Positions 54,952-62,139 of a DNA stretch of 64,000 nt are shown piece after piece. Below the pieces are notes generated by a model. The model did not search any database, was not told the DNA's origin, and saw nothing but the letters and a program-made list of their open reading frames with translations. Numbering within the stretch: position 1 is the first letter of the stretch; each line of letters opens with the position of its first letter. The translations under genes and the position numbers were made by a program. Source of the DNA: an uncultured archaeon (GTDB taxonomy: Archaea > Micrarchaeota > Micrarchaeia > Micrarchaeales > CABMGC01). The DNA lies in NCBI GenBank assembly GCA_963830445.1, contig CAWHMC010000015.1, positions 3,999 to 67,998 on the forward strand. Reading direction: 5' to 3'.

Positions 54952-57315
54952 TCAGTAGAGCAGTTCGTCGAGGCGCTCCGCATCGATCAGTTCCACGGCG
55001 TTGTTCTCTAGGGCCATGCGCAGCAGCTCCGTCTTCTTCCCCGCCTTGCCGTACACGTCGTCCTCGAAGGCCTGCTTCGCCTCGCCGTTCAGGAAGACCA
55101 CGAATATCTTGTGGCCCGAGTGCACCGGCAGCTTGCGCACGCCCGACCTGCTGGAGTAGATGAACACGGGCACCTGCTTGTTGCGCGTCGTTATCACCAT
55201 GTCCGCCTCGGTGTTCGCATCCAGGTCGGTGAAGAAGAGCGCGTGCTCCACCAGGAAGTCCCGCAGCTTCCTGAAGATTATCAGGTACTCGATGTCGTGC
55301 TTGGACGCATCCACCCACTTCGCCGGCATGTAGTACTCGTCGGCGCAGACCAGCTTCCCGGCGTCGGCAAGGTGGTACAGCACCTCGTTCGTGTTCTGCA
55401 GCGTTATGGAGAGGGGGGTGTTGCCCGATCGTATGTTCGTGCTGATGCCAGACTTGATCTCCTCGGGCGTGAGCGGCATGAAGCGCCAGTGGTAGTGGTA
55501 GTTTATCGTCTCGAAGAGGTTCACTATGTTGTCGCCCGGAATGGTCACCTCGGTCTTCTTCACCGGAGGCAGCTCCGGGGCGTCTATGAAGTATTGCTCC
55601 CGGTTCGGCGCCCGCAGGATCACGTTCAGCAGCAGAATCACCACGGCTGCGGCTCCGAACTCTATATATATCGAAGGTATGCCCGCCGGAGCCGTATCAT
55701 AGGGGTGGAAGGTGTAGGCCTTGTTGAGTATGATGATCTTCATGGTCTCCGATCCGTATTGTATCGGCGCATGCGCCGGCAGCGCGTAGGTTATCAGCCC
55801 GTTCCTTATGGTTCCGTTCTGCGGGTAGGCTCCGTTGAGTGTTATGCTGTAGGGTGCACCGTTGAGCGGGGTGCCCGAGCTGTTTACCGAGATGAAGATC
55901 TGCCCCACGCTCCAGTTGGCTCCGGTAAGGGTGATGTTCAGGCTGGGCACGTAGAACACCGCTTTTCCGTAGCTCCTGTCGTTTATGTCAACGAGCGAGG
56001 CGATGTAGTAGGCGTTGGTGGAGAGGTTGCCGAACGGGTAGTACTGGATGATGGGCAGGGAGGTGTTGAAGAAGCTGAGCGGGAAGGCGTAGGCGAAGCT
56101 GAGGTTGCGGTTCGAGACCTCGATGCTGAACGACTTGCTCGAGGAGACGGTGTTCACCTTTATGCGTATGGGCACCACGTTCCCGTAGCCGATGACCGCG
56201 GGCACGCCCATGGTGCCGTTCGGCCGGAAGCTCACGCGGAACGGCAGCTCCAGGTTCTCCGAGCCGCCATCGTTGGAGACGTGGAGCCGTATGAGCGCGA
56301 AGGTGGCGTTGACCTGGTCCGAGACGTAGGGGGATGACATGTTGATTCCGCTCAGCCCGGAGGAGATAAGCGTGAGCCTGCCGTTCGGCTGCCAGTTGGT
56401 CTGGTTGAGCAGGTACCCGCCTGTTCCCAGCTGCGCCATCCAGTAGCGCGTGACGATCGCCTTGGAGAGGTCCTGCGCCTCGGCGCTTGCGTTCTTCCAG
56501 ATCTGCTGCGGCGTCCTGCTGAAGACCGCCAGCTCGCCGTTGGTGACGTTCTGGTAGGCCGAGGCGCCGTACATCTGGCCGAAAAGGAAGTTGAAGGAGG
56601 AGAGGTTGTAGATGAAGCCCGATGCGTATTTGGCGTAGGGCTGCGTGATCAGGTTCAGCCTGTGGAGCGTGAAGATCGTCGCGTTGGGCGTCTGGTAGGT
56701 TACTCCGGCCCCCCGCATGAATGAGAAATTGTCTCCTACATAGAGGACAGAGTCTCCCCTGTTGAACAGGTCCAGCAGGGTCACGTTCCTCACTCCCGGC
56801 GGCAGGGTGAGCCCGGAGTTCGGCATGATCTGCGCCGGCACGAATCCCGTCGAGAGCAGTATGAGCGAGTTAGGGCTGGTGGCGCTGATGTTGTTGATAT
56901 TGATCAGCTGCAGGCTGGTGCTGTTCCGCAGAATCCCGTCGCGGCTGAGGTTCGCTGCCAGAGCGGTGTAAAGCTGCGAGATGTTCAGGCACTCGTAGCA
57001 AGCGGTTCCGGCGTTCACCAGGTAGATGTTGAATATCGGATCCCTCCTGTAGACCCCGATGCTGAAGTTCACGGCGGTGGCGTTGGTGAAGGAGTAGCTG
57101 AGCTCACCGTACTCTACAAACGACTGGGCATTGTTGTAGGTCGCAACGTCCTTCCCTATCACGGTTGCGCTTATGCCGATGGGCCCTGCGACCTGCGCCA
57201 CGGGCTTGAGTTGGCTAAGCGTACTGGATACGAAGAGGTCAATTCCCACTATCATGAGGACGATCGCCAGTATAACTATGGCACCGACAACCATGAGCGT
57301 TCTTTTGGAGACCAT
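54952..57315 (-). CDS. Large surface protein with internal TM and cytoplasmic C-terminal domain
   Basis: N-terminal TM, NxS/T-rich region, second TM (IYIEFGAAAVVILLLNVIL), charged C-terminal domain. Confidence 0.8.
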   Translation of the reverse strand: MVSKRTLMVVGAIVILAIVLMIVGIDLFVSSTLSQLKPVAQVAGPIGISATVIGKDVATYNNAQSFVEYGELSYSFTNATAVNFSIGVYRRDPIFNIYLVNAGTACYECLNISQLYTALAANLSRDGILRNSTSLQLININNISATSPNSLILLSTGFVPAQIMPNSGLTLPPGVRNVTLLDLFNRGDSVLYVGDNFSFMRGAGVTYQTPNATIFTLHRLNLITQPYAKYASGFIYNLSSFNFLFGQMYGASAYQNVTNGELAVFSRTPQQIWKNASAEAQDLSKAIVTRYWMAQLGTGGYLLNQTNWQPNGRLTLISSGLSGINMSSPYVSDQVNATFALIRLHVSNDGGSENLELPFRVSFRPNGTMGVPAVIGYGNVVPIRIKVNTVSSSKSFSIEVSNRNLSFAYAFPLSFFNTSLPIIQYYPFGNLSTNAYYIASLVDINDRSYGKAVFYVPSLNITLTGANWSVGQIFISVNSSGTPLNGAPYSITLNGAYPQNGTIRNGLITYALPAHAPIQYGSETMKIIILNKAYTFHPYDTAPAGIPSIYIEFGAAAVVILLLNVILRAPNREQYFIDAPELPPVKKTEVTIPGDNIVNLFETINYHYHWRFMPLTPEEIKSGISTNIRSGNTPLSITLQNTNEVLYHLADAGKLVCADEYYMPAKWVDASKHDIEYLIIFRKLRDFLVEHALFFTDLDANTEADMVITTRNKQVPVFIYSSRSGVRKLPVHSGHKIFVVFLNGEAKQAFEDDVYGKAGKKTELLRMALENNAVELIDAERLDELLY

Positions 57316-57479: not shown

Positions 57480-58217
57480 CTAGCTCTGGACCTCCAGGAA
57501 GCCGCGGGCCACCATCTTGTCAAGTATCTCCTCAACCCTCGGCGCGTTGATGCTGTAGGTCTTGGAGAAGAGATCGATGTCGATGCTGTTGTTGTGCACC
57601 TCTATCCAGTCCTCAACCATGGACATGAGCGACTCGTCGGAGTACTTCTGCAGCTTCTCAAGCTCCGCCTTCTGGGCCTTGTTCTCGGCGCTGAGCTGGG
57701 CCGCCTGTATGGTGAGGTTGCGGTTGGATGAGGAGAGCTCCAGGTTCAGGCGCTTGAATGCGCGGTACTCCTCCAGCATCCCGTCGTACTTGTTGAAGAG
57801 CGTGCTGTAGCTCGGCGTTATGCCTGCGAGCAGCTTGTCAAGTGTAGAATCGGCGTACTGGAGCAGCTCCGTCTGGCTCACGGTGTAATCGTCGGTGACC
57901 AGCGCGAGGATCGCGCAGACGCTGCGCAGTATGTTCGCCCTGCGCATGTCGCTGCTGGTGTCGGGTGGAATCGAGTAAACGGCCTCAACCCCGTCGCGCT
58001 TTATCATGATTATGTAGAAGAGGTAGGGCATCTTGTGGATGTTCCTGCTCTCCACCCGAGCGATGGTCAGTGCGTCTGCGTCAAGGCCTGTGGAGTAGAA
58101 AGGGATGACTGCAAGTTTGCTCTTTATCGCATCGAACGTGGTGAGCAGCTTGCCTGGGAACGTTATCTTTTCCATTTTCGGAGCCGGAATGCTCTCTTCT
58201 ACCACAATACCACTCAT
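57480..58217 (-). CDS. Coiled-coil protein with C-terminal winged-helix-like domain
   Basis: Heptads about aa 145-190; IDIDLFSKTYSINAPRVEEILDKMVARGFL. Confidence 0.75.
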   Translation of the reverse strand: MSGIVVEESIPAPKMEKITFPGKLLTTFDAIKSKLAVIPFYSTGLDADALTIARVESRNIHKMPYLFYIIMIKRDGVEAVYSIPPDTSSDMRRANILRSVCAILALVTDDYTVSQTELLQYADSTLDKLLAGITPSYSTLFNKYDGMLEEYRAFKRLNLELSSSNRNLTIQAAQLSAENKAQKAELEKLQKYSDESLMSMVEDWIEVHNNSIDIDLFSKTYSINAPRVEEILDKMVARGFLEVQS

Positions 58218-58343: not shown

Positions 58344-59120
58344 ATGAAACCGTTCCTGCCACTCGCATTCGCGATCTTCTCGCTCCTGCTACTCTCCAAT
58401 GCCTATGCCTATTACAACATCACCTACACCAACACCACTGTCCTATTCAACGGGAACCAGAGCGCCCACGTGGTCGAGCAGTTCACCCTGTTCGTGAGCA
58501 ACTCTTCCTACTCCCAGTACCTGAGCAACCGGAATGCGGTGGGCCTGAGCCTTAACTACTGGCAGAACATCCTTTACACTAACCAGCTGGTGGAGCACAT
58601 AGTGAACAGCGGCCACAGCATAAGCCAGTTCGAGTTCCTGCCCGGCCCGCTGGCCACCGGCCCCACGGGCGGCGTAGCGACGCTCACCATAAACTACTAC
58701 ATCAACAACGTCACCCTGGTGACGAACACCGCCCCGCGCAGGTTCGAGTACACGTTCAACGACAGCCTCTTCAACTTCGAGAACACGGCCAACGGCCAGG
58801 CACTCCCCAACGCGGTACGCCTGAACTTCATAATACCGCACGGAGCCACCGCCGTGGCCATCTACCCGCTGCCGGACAGCCCCCAGCTCAACTTCATCAG
58901 CAACTCCACCAACGTCACCTCGTTCTCCTGGTACTCCGGGGAGCCCCTCTCCGGCTTCACGTTCCAGTACATCACCACACAGTCTCTGCAGGCCGAGGTG
59001 CTGCAGTACCTGCAGAACGTATACTCAAGCTACACCGCCGAGCTGTACCTCACTCTTATCGTAGCAATAGTACTCATCGGCGTCTACTCCTACCTGAAGA
59101 TAGTGCGCCAGGAGAAGTAG
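58344..59120 (+). CDS. Secreted, C-terminally anchored surface protein
   Basis: Signal peptide, IYPLPD motif, C-terminal TM. Confidence 0.75.
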   Translation: MKPFLPLAFAIFSLLLLSNAYAYYNITYTNTTVLFNGNQSAHVVEQFTLFVSNSSYSQYLSNRNAVGLSLNYWQNILYTNQLVEHIVNSGHSISQFEFLPGPLATGPTGGVATLTINYYINNVTLVTNTAPRRFEYTFNDSLFNFENTANGQALPNAVRLNFIIPHGATAVAIYPLPDSPQLNFISNSTNVTSFSWYSGEPLSGFTFQYITTQSLQAEVLQYLQNVYSSYTAELYLTLIVAIVLIGVYSYLKIVRQEK

Positions 59121-59138: not shown

Positions 59139-61943
59139 TTACTCCCTTCCATGCTCTGCCATGAATGCCAGGTATCGTCCGATGATTGCCGGCGTGGCAG
59201 TCGGCCGCGTGTTCTTTATTATCGCGTTTATGTCCGCCGTCGTGATCATCTTTGTGCCCTCTTCAGGCACCTTGTCCGCTTCGTGGCCTATGAGCGAGTC
59301 CTCCAGCGCATGCATCTTCGCCTCGCGGCAGATGTTTGCAATATCCGCGCCGGTATACCCTGTGGTGACCGCTGCGAGCTTGTCGTAGTCCAGATCGGCA
59401 GCAACCGGTGCATTCTTCAGGTTTATCTTGAACAGGGTTACTCGTGCCTCCTTGTCCGGTGGCGAGGCGTAGACCAGCTTGTCCAGGCGACCCGGCCGGA
59501 TGAGCGCGGGCTCTATCGCGTCGGGACGGTTCGTCGCGCCCACTATCACCAGTCCGCCCGCCTCCTTGGCCTGGTCGAACTCGCGCAGGAACTCGGCTGT
59601 GAGCTGCACCATCCCCTCGCTCGCCGTGTCCCGGTTGGGCACCAGCGAGTCGATCTCGTCTATGAATAGTATGCTGGGGATGTTCTCCTTCGCCCGGAAG
59701 AAGTTCTCCTTTAGCTTGCGCACCGCGTTCTCGTAGCCCTCCTTGCTCAGGTCGGCGCCGGAGACGCTGATCATCGTAAGTCCCTCGGTGGCGTTGGCGA
59801 TCCCGCGCATGAGCATGGTCTTGCCGCAGCCGGGCGGCCCGAAGAGGAGTATGCCGCTGATGTTCTTCACGTCGTACTCCTTCATCATCTCAGGGTGCGC
59901 GAGCGGGATCGTTATCGCCTCGTTGAGCGCCCTCTTCGCATCCGCCATGTTGACCACATCCTCGATCTTCACGGCCTCGTCGGGCTTCTGCACCGGCTCG
60001 CCGTTGAGCCTGCGCTCGTAGTCGAGCTTGAACGCGTCGTACTCCTCCAGCTGCTCGTAGGTGGTGGTGGGCTTGGTCTGCTTGATCATCTCCACCAGGT
60101 GGTCGGTGTCGATGCGCATCGCCTTCGACTGCTTCACCGCCTCGTTGCCCACCCGCGTCGCTGCCTCCCGGCAGATGTTCGCGATGTCCGCTCCGGAGAA
60201 GCGCTTGGTCATCCTGGAGAGCTTGTCGAAATCGATGTCGTCGCTCATGGGGTAGAGCTTGGAGTAGTGCTTGAAGATCGCGACTCGTCCCGCATCATCG
60301 GGCAGGGGCATGTATATCACCCGGTCGACTCGGCCGGGCCTCATGAATGCGGGATCGATTAGCTGTGGCGTGTTAGTCGCACCCACCACTACGACCCCCT
60401 CCATCTTCTGGAACCCGTCCATCTCCGCCAGGAGCGTCGAGAGCATCTGGCGCTGAAGGTCGTCGGCAGAGGCGTCGCGCCTCCGGGCCAGGCTCTCCAC
60501 TTCGTCGAAGAAGAGAAGGGTCGGAGTGTGGGCCTTGGCCACGTCGAAGATTTTGGAGAGCGTCTTCGCGCTCTCGCCCTCCTGCGCTGAAAGGATGGTG
60601 GAGGCCTTGACGTAGAGGAAGCGGGCGCGTATCTCGTTGGAGAGGGCGCGCATGAGCATGGTCTTGCCCGTGCCCGGGGGCCCGAACAGCAGGATGCCCT
60701 TCGCGGGCTTGATGTTGTAGGCGCCCTCGATCTCCTTGTGCTCTATGGGCTGCAGGATGGCCTCGCGAAGCTCCTCCTTGGTGTGCTCGTAGTTGCCGAT
60801 GTCGTCCAGGGTCTCCCTGCTTCCGGAGGTGAGGTCCTCAAAGGCCTCGCCGAACTTGCCCATGAAGTCCTGCTTCATGACGTCAAGCGCGCGCACGATG
60901 TCGATGTCGTTGAGCTCCAGCAGGACCAGGACGAGGGGAGTTATCAGGAAGCCAGCAAGCATGTACGGGCTGATGGCGCTGTTGAAGAAGTAGGCGAGCC
61001 CGATGTAGGTGGCGAGTATGGCGAACGAGAAGAGGCTGGCGACGGTGCCCTTGAACCCGGACCTGCTGCTCATGACCCTCTGGGCGATGGCGAAGACCAC
61101 GATGAGCCAGACCGCGAGCTGCACGCCGATGGCAGTTATGTTGTATGCTATGGAAAGTATGCACAGGTATATCACGTACTCCAGCGAGCCCGCGATGTTT
61201 AGCGTGAGGAAGTTCACCACGGATGTGCCGAACGCGCCCGGCAGCTGCGTTATCGAAGGCGCTGGTTTGAGCGCGGTGATGAAAGCGGAGACGGAGCTAG
61301 TGCCGACCACCGCCTTGAAGCCCAGGGCGTTGAAGGCGATGGGGGCGGCGATGGGCAGGGCCATCATGGTCGCGAGCATGGGGAGCATCACCACGGCGAA
61401 GGCGGTGGCTATCGCCCCGCGCTTGAGCCCGATGTACAGGATCCCGATGACCAGGGCGGGGATCTCCAGGAAGAAGCCCAGGAAGGAGAAGGGCAGCGCG
61501 ATGAGCGCGTAGGCCAGGGTGATGATCCGGTAGTGCTTGTAGCCGAAGACCAGGGAGGCCACCAGGAAGATGCAGTAGAGGAGCGCGATGAGCGGGGCCT
61601 GGAACAGGTACACGGGCAGCGAGACGAAGAGCAGCACCATCAGCCCAGCGAGCGGATGGTAGCGGGTAAGGAGGAAGACGATAACGGCGAATACGGCGAT
61701 CAGCTCGACGGGGTAGAAGGGGAAGGCGATGACGATGCTCAGCAGCGCAAAGGTGGCGAGGATGGAGTCGGGGAAGTACTTGTTGCTCATGAACTCGTGG
61801 ATCTCCTCCTTGAGCCAGTAGTAGGTCATCGGAGTGGAGATGCGCGCCGTGGGTTTCTTCGCAGGCTCCGGCTTCGCCGCGCTAGGTGCCGCTTTCTTTT
61901 TAGCGCCGTCCTTTGCCTTGCTTGGTGGTGGAGTTCCCGGCAT
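59139..61943 (-). CDS. Polytopic membrane protein fused to tandem AAA+ domains
   Basis: About 9-10 hydrophobic segments, [40 protein letters not shown]. Confidence 0.9.
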   Translation of the reverse strand: MPGTPPPSKAKDGAKKKAAPSAAKPEPAKKPTARISTPMTYYWLKEEIHEFMSNKYFPDSILATFALLSIVIAFPFYPVELIAVFAVIVFLLTRYHPLAGLMVLLFVSLPVYLFQAPLIALLYCIFLVASLVFGYKHYRIITLAYALIALPFSFLGFFLEIPALVIGILYIGLKRGAIATAFAVVMLPMLATMMALPIAAPIAFNALGFKAVVGTSSVSAFITALKPAPSITQLPGAFGTSVVNFLTLNIAGSLEYVIYLCILSIAYNITAIGVQLAVWLIVVFAIAQRVMSSRSGFKGTVASLFSFAILATYIGLAYFFNSAISPYMLAGFLITPLVLVLLELNDIDIVRALDVMKQDFMGKFGEAFEDLTSGSRETLDDIGNYEHTKEELREAILQPIEHKEIEGAYNIKPAKGILLFGPPGTGKTMLMRALSNEIRARFLYVKASTILSAQEGESAKTLSKIFDVAKAHTPTLLFFDEVESLARRRDASADDLQRQMLSTLLAEMDGFQKMEGVVVVGATNTPQLIDPAFMRPGRVDRVIYMPLPDDAGRVAIFKHYSKLYPMSDDIDFDKLSRMTKRFSGADIANICREAATRVGNEAVKQSKAMRIDTDHLVEMIKQTKPTTTYEQLEEYDAFKLDYERRLNGEPVQKPDEAVKIEDVVNMADAKRALNEAITIPLAHPEMMKEYDVKNISGILLFGPPGCGKTMLMRGIANATEGLTMISVSGADLSKEGYENAVRKLKENFFRAKENIPSILFIDEIDSLVPNRDTASEGMVQLTAEFLREFDQAKEAGGLVIVGATNRPDAIEPALIRPGRLDKLVYASPPDKEARVTLFKINLKNAPVAADLDYDKLAAVTTGYTGADIANICREAKMHALEDSLIGHEADKVPEEGTKMITTADINAIIKNTRPTATPAIIGRYLAFMAEHGRE

Positions 61944-61999
61944 AATTTTTATACTGGCATGATAACGTATAAATAGCTGCCCGGCGATATTATCAGCAT

Positions 62000-62107
62000 C
62001 CCGCTGTAGCTCAACGGCAGAGCGATCGGCTGTAGTCTGAAGAAGCTTCTTGGAGGTTTTTCAAGAAGGATACCGATAGGCTGGGAGTTCAAATCTCCCC
62101 AGCGGGA
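62000..62107 (+). tRNA. tRNA-Tyr(GTA) with canonical intron (about 62036-62071)
   Basis: CCCGCTG/CAGCGGG acceptor (C1:G72), ATCGG-CTGTAG..A-CCGAT, GGGAG-TTCAAAT-CTCCC. Confidence 0.9.
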
Positions 62108-62139
62108 AACATAAATATCTCAAAAGCAGTTGTACTTAC

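Follow-up and report, generated by a model that had tools for sequence, protein, structure and literature searches.

A membrane-bound tandem-AAA ATPase of Micrarchaeota with a predicted S-component-like domain and a possible role in envelope protein extraction

We analyzed a window of 64,000 nucleotides from an uncultured archaeon of the order Micrarchaeales (assembly GCA_963830445.1, contig CAWHMC010000015.1, positions 3,999 to 67,998), focusing on P0001, an open reading frame (ORF) on the minus strand at 59139..61943. The gene is intact and encodes a membrane-bound tandem-AAA ATPase that has neither the N-domain of CDC48 nor a protease; its family, present in 255 of 301 genomes of the Micrarchaeota, which are very small archaea associated with hosts, is a variant of the type II AAA unfoldases that we did not find described in the literature searched. 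The reading that we tentatively favor, and to which we give a little less than an even chance, is that the protein extracts envelope proteins from the membrane and has a receptor-like domain of its own.

Results

An intact gene with two complete AAA rings

The ORF encodes 934 residues with zero internal stops. From the N-terminus, the protein comprises a disordered tail, a hydrophobic domain (residues 57-344), AAA ring 1, and AAA ring 2. Pfam detects two AAA domains; CDC48_N, CDC48_2, and peptidase domains are not among the best 25 of the 46 Pfam families for this protein. A fused protease domain of the FtsH or LonB type was found neither with Pfam or NCBIfam profiles nor by an HExxH motif in the sequence. 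These data bear out the original prediction of a polytopic, membrane-anchored double-AAA ATPase without a protease domain. That prediction also placed about 340 residues of membrane domain where CDC48 has its N-domain; the N-domain is indeed not found, but the membrane domain is smaller, about 290-310 residues, because the first ~35 residues form a low-complexity, disordered tail in the full-length model (pLDDT <50 for residues 1-29). As a comparator we used the canonical CDC48 of the same genome (P0002; 43984..46140, plus strand), which carries CDC48_N and CDC48_2 according to Pfam, has KFVG and KYVG pore loops and an MYR tail, and scores 1029 bits against TIGR01243.

Both rings retain their catalytic machinery, as had been claimed for the Walker motifs and arginine fingers. 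Ring 1 (D1, membrane-proximal; residues 378-645; 60009..60812, minus strand) has intact Walker A and B motifs (GPPGTGKT at residue 421, FFDE), sensor 1, and both arginines. Ring 2 (D2; residues 660-931; 59151..59966, minus strand) likewise has intact catalytic motifs (GPPGCGKT at residue 702, FIDE), and the sensor-1 Asn and RPGR are found in both rings. Across the 164 two-ring family sequences, selected by the presence of two Walker A motifs, the Walker B motif is intact in 164/164 (D1) and 163/164 (D2), and both arginines in 164/164 and 162/164, respectively. In all 8 genes of the window's genus the catalytic residues of both rings are invariant, and we therefore reject gene decay in this genus.

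The membrane domain is predicted to contain an S-component-like fold

Residues 57-344 (60912..61775, minus strand) are hydrophobic and are modeled as entirely helical (pLDDT 88, pTM 0.85). A positive-inside analysis of 183 family sequences predicts ten membrane helices and places the N- and C-termini on the cytoplasmic side. The model and the positive-inside analysis also predict a large external insertion between helices 7 and 8 (residues 195-268; 61140..61361, minus strand), in which 40% of family members have an N-glycosylation sequon.

The best structural matches of the membrane domain are all substrate-binding subunits of transporters. Helices 5-10 (residues 133-358; 60870..61547, minus strand) are predicted to adopt the six-helix fold of energy-coupling factor (ECF) transporter S-components and to continue into the ring-1 linker. 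This fold was recovered with two models, two distant family members, and two aligners, and the orientation matches as well, with both termini inside and loops 1, 3, and 5 predicted to be outside. Conserved polar and aromatic residues (S191, N198, Y204, Q275, W279, and Y313 in the family consensus) lie in the outer half of helices 5-10, and the invariant polar residues and the topology are maintained across the whole phylum. Helix 10 is predicted to run directly into ring 1, much as the output domain follows on helix 6 in receptors with the S-component fold.

No sequence link to S-component families was found with Pfam (39 members), a PDB profile, or hhalign; the hhalign comparison set was small (n=14) and mixed with non-S proteins, and S-components are themselves highly divergent. 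No Pfam family matches the membrane domain at E<=0.1, Foldseek searches against the PDB and viral structures gave no match at E<=0.001, and an atlas structure search with the query's own membrane domain gave no usable match. A trimer prediction for the domain scored 0.00, which is evidence neither way. The AxxxA motif used for ECF docking appears in 18/183 sequences in the helix equivalent to S-component helix 1, about as often as in helices 4 and 6; PMC11109136 describes non-transporter uses of the S-component fold that also lack this motif. On the models, the ATPase has a predicted S-component fold without the docking motif of an ECF transporter subunit.

The membrane domain also occurs apart from the ATPase. 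It is matched by hhalign (96.8%, E 3e-10, 172 columns) in the ATPase-free homolog P0182 and its relative P0188, which suggests that the domain has a function of its own. In P0182, P0187, and P0188, which have no ATPase, the ten-helix domain is followed by a coiled coil and by regions that weakly match a zinc ribbon and, at the C-terminus, a helix-turn-helix; a search for the P0182 locus returned one spurious zinc-ribbon match in genomes and none in metagenomes. Separately, an unnamed Bacillota cluster of 401 residues in the atlas resembles the whole membrane domain by structure (TM 0.57), and Chloroflexota clusters of 339-345 residues resemble it by features (0.86-0.88), the latter as a lead only.

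Pore loops across the family

In CDC48-type unfoldases, an aromatic pore residue grips the substrate. Pore loop 1 of D1 in the window's ATPase is LSAQEG (60576..60593, minus strand), a six-residue loop in the full-length model with Gln at the aromatic position, and that of D2 is SKEGY (59733..59747, minus strand), which the model collapses to a two-residue turn between helices. The loops SAQEG and SKEGY thus read as originally reported against KFVG and KYVG in the window's CDC48, and SKEGY does hold an aromatic residue, positioned after the glycine.

The description of both loops as non-canonical holds for D2, in every family member inspected, but not for D1. Counting one row per genome locus, with one truncated locus left out, the D1 position is W, Y, or F in 61/68 genes outside the window's genus and in 0/8 inside it. 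It is aromatic in 34/38 basal genes (those outside the window's order), 27 of them with Trp, typically as S-Q/E-W-Y-G-E, and in 27/30 other Micrarchaeales genes (13/13 from other genera of the same family, 13/16 from the sister family, and 1/1 from a third family). The basal D1 loop is at least as canonical as that of CDC48; most orthologs outside the genus keep an aromatic loop in ring 1, which goes halfway to refuting the original claim on its own terms.

On a FastTree tree of 183 sequences with inteins removed, the loss of the D1 aromatic in the window's genus maps to one branch (11 sequences, support 1.0), and erosion proceeds stepwise from W-Y-G to Y-x-G to x-x-G. The residue is lost in 25/183 sequences overall, including separate losses elsewhere in the tree. 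Judging by these sequences, the aromatic-free D1 loop is a derived state of the window's genus, where it takes the forms SAQEG, SAYG, PQLG, PSIG, ANVG, SNSG, SKSG, and STSG. We also noticed one genome with two paralogs 30 kb apart (G029 C23 40316 and 70565; L035 and L031), both without the D1 aromatic (SSNIG, SSSPG).

The D2 loop has a different history. Its ancestral sequence is K-x-G-Y (25/33 basal genes); through most of the window's order the loop varies (2/13 and 0/16), but K-E-G-Y is found in 8/8 genes of the window's genus. There, identity in the loop compared with its own domain is 0.46 vs 0.68 for D1 and 0.83 vs 0.57 for D2, while in eight other genes of the same family the pattern is the opposite (0.74 vs 0.63 for D1, 0.40 vs 0.59 for D2). 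Pore loop 2 of D1 is poorly conserved in the window's genus (0.32).

Several natural variants bear on the relative importance of the rings. Inteins sit exactly in the D1 pore loop in 9/167 sequences. Proteins of 623-659 residues that contain D1 only, with the loop S-W-Y/H-G-E, occur in 4 genomes with the S-layer gene still adjoining, and D2 is degenerate in one lineage; D1 is therefore the ring that the family cannot lose. The inteins interrupt the loop between W-Y/F-G-E and S (L067, L068, L070, P0095, P0103, P0111, P0136, P0146, and P0153), and P0136 carries a second one.

Archaeal-type CDC48 has an aromatic loop 1 in both rings; the window's ATPase is canonical in neither. According to PMC5447069, VAT uses the pore residues of both rings, and PMC5511170 describes yeast Cdc48 as working although the aromatic is lost in one ring. 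Because yeast Cdc48 has it, the loss of the aromatic from one ring is ordinary; its loss from D1 on top of a collapsed D2 loop is an unusual state of the window's genus.

Distribution in the phylum and linkage to the S-layer gene

A search with the membrane domain found matches in 38/41 close genomes, including the source genome, and in 247/301 Micrarchaeota genomes; of the 54 without a match, 8 were recovered with a broader profile. The gene is nearly always single copy and was not found in several whole Micrarchaeota families (0/7, 0/15, 0/5, and 0/2). Among 1.84 billion representatives, a profile search matched only 75, and the long ones that were inspected carry AAA modules. All matches named at the phylum or family level, a minority, are from Micrarchaeota except for one labeled 'Candidatus Aquilonibacter'. 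A search of sequencing runs gave four DNA runs at a small share, with no RNA run among those listed. These results support the idea of a membrane-embedded tandem-AAA motor conserved across a DPANN phylum. The literature searches, which covered titles and abstracts, with subscription papers and bioRxiv supplements outside their view, returned no description of this architecture; the passages on AAA proteins and S-layers in PMC5898192 concern other systems.

Outside the window's order, 27/74 genomes have the ATPase and an S-layer gene (PF05124) no more than 8 kb apart, on the same strand in 26; the 74 are those of 80 genomes searched in which both genes were found. The linked loci span 10/15 basal families, and the ATPase lies directly upstream of the S-layer operon there. 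The link was not found in the largest basal family (0/33), nor at any of the 38 loci from the window's order, for which at most ~9 kb was covered on each side and less where a contig ended; in the source genome the S-layer operon is on contig C13, apart from the ATPase. The S-layer-linked ATPases are those with the most canonical D1 loop, and members with eroded loops lack the link. The suggestion that the motor acts at the host interface finds no support, the organism's own S-layer gene being the only repeated functional neighbor. According to a preprint (bioRxiv 10.1101/2021.04.28.441871), Micrarchaeota build their S-layer from this protein family, the anchoring is unresolved, and a signal peptide or membrane helix is predicted at the N-terminus of the S-layer protein.

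The S-layer operon itself is conserved at L154-L156, L160, and L165-L167, with the S-layer gene, a secreted protein of ~690 residues that usually comes next and is a candidate anchor or stalk, and often a protein of ~190-210 residues. A small P-loop GTPase-like gene (206 residues) follows the operon genes at L154 and L156.

C-terminal tails and ancestry

The window's ATPase ends in AEHGRE and has no HbYX proteasome-docking motif, which 7/166 relatives carry. In 8/183 family members, the C-terminus extends six or more residues beyond the usual family end, and 7 of these 8 end in an HbYX-like GMYR, PMFG, RHYR, or SHYR; 5/8 fall within the strict HbYX pattern given in PMC3493965. These ends resemble the MYR, MYG, and MFG ends of 21 Micrarchaeota CDC48 proteins. 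Within a single clade the tails arise at three separate points, a pattern suggesting that proteasome docking was gained more than once, and at the sequence level they would fit a family whose products reach degradation.

In a tree of 14 family and 10 Micrarchaeota CDC48 proteins, built without an outgroup, the family D1 and D2 are each monophyletic and stand apart from CDC48 D1+D2 (support 95). Approximately unbiased (AU) tests, however, reject neither grouping, and descent from a duplicate of CDC48 stays compatible with them (p 0.36 and 0.34). Derivation of family D1 from CDC48 D2 is not supported: both family rings score higher on the CDC48 D2 profile (166/166 and 165/165), so this preference is uninformative. 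The AAA modules score as CDC48/PAN-type, and against TIGR01243 the ATPase scores 445 bits and two other members 513 and 477, all below the cut-off of 802.65.

Other genes around the ATPase

No conserved operon surrounds the ATPase in Micrarchaeales, where it has tRNAs or complex I-like genes next to it or, at 12 loci, an OB-fold-like gene. In the window, an intron-containing tRNA-Tyr gene (61999..62108, plus strand) lies divergently upstream, and a tRNA-Tyr or tRNA-Asp is found just upstream in many relatives. A convergent gene (58344..59120, plus strand) encodes a predicted surface glycoprotein of 258 residues with a C-terminal membrane helix and no Pfam or NCBIfam family; it is a core gene of the order. 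We rejected it as a dedicated partner since, despite matches in 40/41 genomes of the order, it is near the ATPase in only 11/38 loci, all in one subclade. The OB-fold-like gene (~260 residues, tandem, RPA-like by eye) converges on the ATPase at 12 loci in two families (L023, L025, L029, L031, L033, L034, L036-L038, and L051-L053). Farther along the window, a 245-residue coiled-coil protein (57480-58217, minus strand), whose C-terminal end weakly matches EAP30/Vps36 (E 0.016), adjoins a membrane and surface protein of 787 residues that belongs to no family (54952-57315); the two are possibly an envelope or ESCRT-like pair.

Elsewhere, LonB (TIGR00764) is present as a separate gene in 295/301 genomes, and we therefore reject the ATPase as a stand-in for a missing membrane protease; LonB was not found in the source genome, whose assembly is 65%-complete. 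That assembly contains a second non-CDC48 classical AAA protein (G000 contig C13, 115893-116297) of ~500 residues, with TPR-like repeats by eye and one AAA module that has an M-Y-A-G loop, and no further full-length classical AAA protein such as PAN was found in it.

Discussion

In the reading that we favor, the two-module ATPase likely forms a ring and likely pulls envelope membrane proteins or their anchors into the cytoplasm, with the predicted S-component-like helices likely serving as a built-in module for recognizing clients or ligands. From AAA biochemistry, ring 1 would face the membrane and thread the substrate away from it. Ring 1 would be the ancestral working ring because it keeps W-Y-G, attracts inteins at its loop, and survives alone in four genomes; the clients would be envelope proteins because the ATPase is linked to the S-layer operon in ten families. 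Extracted proteins would go to the proteasome, by direct docking in the few members with HbYX tails. The weakest step concerns the window's genus, where the grip of ring 1 would be lost and the K-E-G-Y tyrosine in the ring-2 turn would supply what grip remains, perhaps yielding a gentler or more selective motor. The substrate-gripping residue of ring 1 has, in this genus, possibly been replaced by one in ring 2.

Some observations temper this last step. The regions compared for loop conservation are short, were picked after the pattern was seen, and represent a single event. The G-Y pair is older than the loss in D1, being present in basal families and in a sister clade whose D1 loop is still aromatic, and neither feature is present in 10 sequences. 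Because of this order of events and these 10 sequences, we put compensation forward as a hypothesis for the window's genus only.

The same facts lend themselves to a second explanation, which we consider unlikely but well worth weighing: that selection on the ancestral extractase has relaxed and the protein, now a non-threading remodeler or scaffold, applies the motion of its rings to membrane complexes, with K-E-G-Y kept only by descent. The variable D1 loop and the poorly conserved D1 pore loop 2 fit this view, as do the age of K-x-G-Y, the other losses of the D1 aromatic, which came without G-Y, and yeast Cdc48, which works with one ring lacking the aromatic. What speaks against it is that the D2 loop is conserved above its domain in the window's genus and below it elsewhere in the family, and that the catalytic residues of both rings are all invariant.

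An importer, in which a nutrient, peptide, or host protein from outside is bound by the S-component-like domain and taken up by the AAA rings in place of the ECF ATPase module, strikes us as a good deal less probable. Its appeal lies in the structural matches, all to substrate-binding transporter subunits, and in the rarity of canonical ECF S-components (PF12822) in the phylum, with 4/151 genomes over the cut-off. The direction of pulling expected from AAA polarity, from the membrane toward the cytoplasm, also fits import. The AxxxA motif is not present, though, and the four extra helices and the large external insertion should hinder toppling. The conserved W-Y-G loop and the HbYX tails indicate the handling of polypeptides, the conserved neighborhoods contain no transport genes, and searches of several whole families found no copy (0/7, 0/15, 0/5).

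We find it improbable that the ATPase is an exporter or inserter like Bcs1, a membrane-bound AAA protein that, according to PMC7994207, lacks a substrate-binding loop and pushes folded cargo. Here the collapse of the pore loops would open a chamber for folded S-layer or surface subunits on their way outward, consistent with the predicted collapse of the D2 loop, the stepwise erosion of D1, and the fact that in ten families the S-layer operon follows the gene directly. Yet the S-layer-linked members have the most canonical D1 loop and the eroded ones have lost the link, D1-only members keep W-Y-G, the AAA modules score as CDC48/PAN-type, and the S-layer protein has the predicted N-terminal signal peptide or membrane helix noted above.

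Equally doubtful is the view that the ATPase belongs to the MBA (membrane-bound AAA) group of Sulfolobales and differs only in a larger anchor, the membrane domain being a tether for a general unfoldase and its likeness to S-components a common helical arrangement: MBA is a recognized archaeal AAA cluster separate from CDC48 (PMC3493965), and in the tree neither family ring groups with CDC48 D1+D2, but against this stand the invariant polar residues and fixed topology of the membrane domain, its occurrence without the ATPase in P0182/P0188, and the AU tests, which leave descent from a CDC48 duplicate unrejected.

A phylum-wide AAA motor joined to an S-component fold that resembles a receptor would add a third use of this fold to transport and kinase sensing. 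Apart from LonB, little is settled about how archaea remodel or turn over the proteins of their membranes and S-layers, and the reduced genomes of DPANN archaea retain few dispensable machines. The natural variants (ring 1 only, aromatic-free ring 1, HbYX-tailed) make the division of labor between the rings of type II AAA ATPases testable; if true, the shift of grip in the window's genus would be a natural experiment on how work is reassigned between the rings of a double-ring unfoldase. A bolder version, which we regard as unlikely, is a one-chain archaeal counterpart of endoplasmic reticulum-associated degradation: a receptor with the S-component fold would recognize an envelope client or a ligand from outside and gate a CDC48-type motor that extracts S-layer and surface proteins, hands them to the proteasome in some lineages, and in the window's genus has moved its grip to the reversed G-Y loop of ring 2.

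Among known systems, the predicted membrane domain is closest to the ECF S-components (ThiT, BioY, RibU, FolT, PanT, CbiM, and BtuM), with which residues 133-358 share the predicted six-helix fold and orientation. The ATPase differs from them in its four additional N-terminal helices, its ~70-residue external insertion, the missing AxxxA motif, and the fusion to AAA modules, and its membrane domain has no detectable sequence similarity to theirs. According to PMC11109136, 5TMR receptors and MreD share the fold; the main text of that paper does not contain the word AAA. Like a 5TMR kinase, the ATPase continues from the last helix of its membrane domain into a cytoplasmic output domain.

Other AAA proteins, several of them membrane-bound, resemble it in some features and differ in others. 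The Sulfolobus solfataricus proteins MBA1 and MBA2, reportedly described by Serek-Heuberger in 2009, are said to be membrane-bound and related to CDC48, with two AAA modules, no protease, and an N-terminus of ~50 residues with one membrane helix; a single helix, if so, contrasts with the ~300-residue, predicted ten-helix domain here and is a further point against placing the ATPase among them. FtsH, LonB, and Msp1/ATAD1 are membrane-anchored AAA rings placed for the extraction of membrane proteins, and the ATPase differs from this set in having no protease, two rings, and a polytopic domain. Like the motor proposed here, NSF/Sec18 works with ring 1 and has no threading loop in ring 2, and Bcs1 shares with the ATPase a membrane-bound AAA module without the canonical loop. 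On the other side, the catalytic set of ring 2 is complete in the ATPase, neither a SNAP- nor a Bcs1-specific domain was seen in it, and basal members have a canonical D1 loop where Bcs1 has no threading loop.

The closest likeness is to CDC48, VAT, and p97, which share the tandem classical AAA modules with Walker A and B, sensor 1, and two arginines, and which provide the best family (TIGR01243) and PDB matches (5vc7, 5g4f, and p97 entries). Basal members also share the W/Y-x-G-E-S-E loop of ring 1 with CDC48, and a few share an MYR-type tail. In contrast, the ATPase has a predicted ten-helix domain in place of the N-domain and a ring-2 loop that is collapsed in the model, scores below the CDC48 cut-off, and is encoded in the same genome as a true CDC48. 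It would work in the manner of a CDC48 bound to the membrane, yet by its N-terminus, TIGR01243 score, pore loops, and tail it falls outside the CDC48 family.

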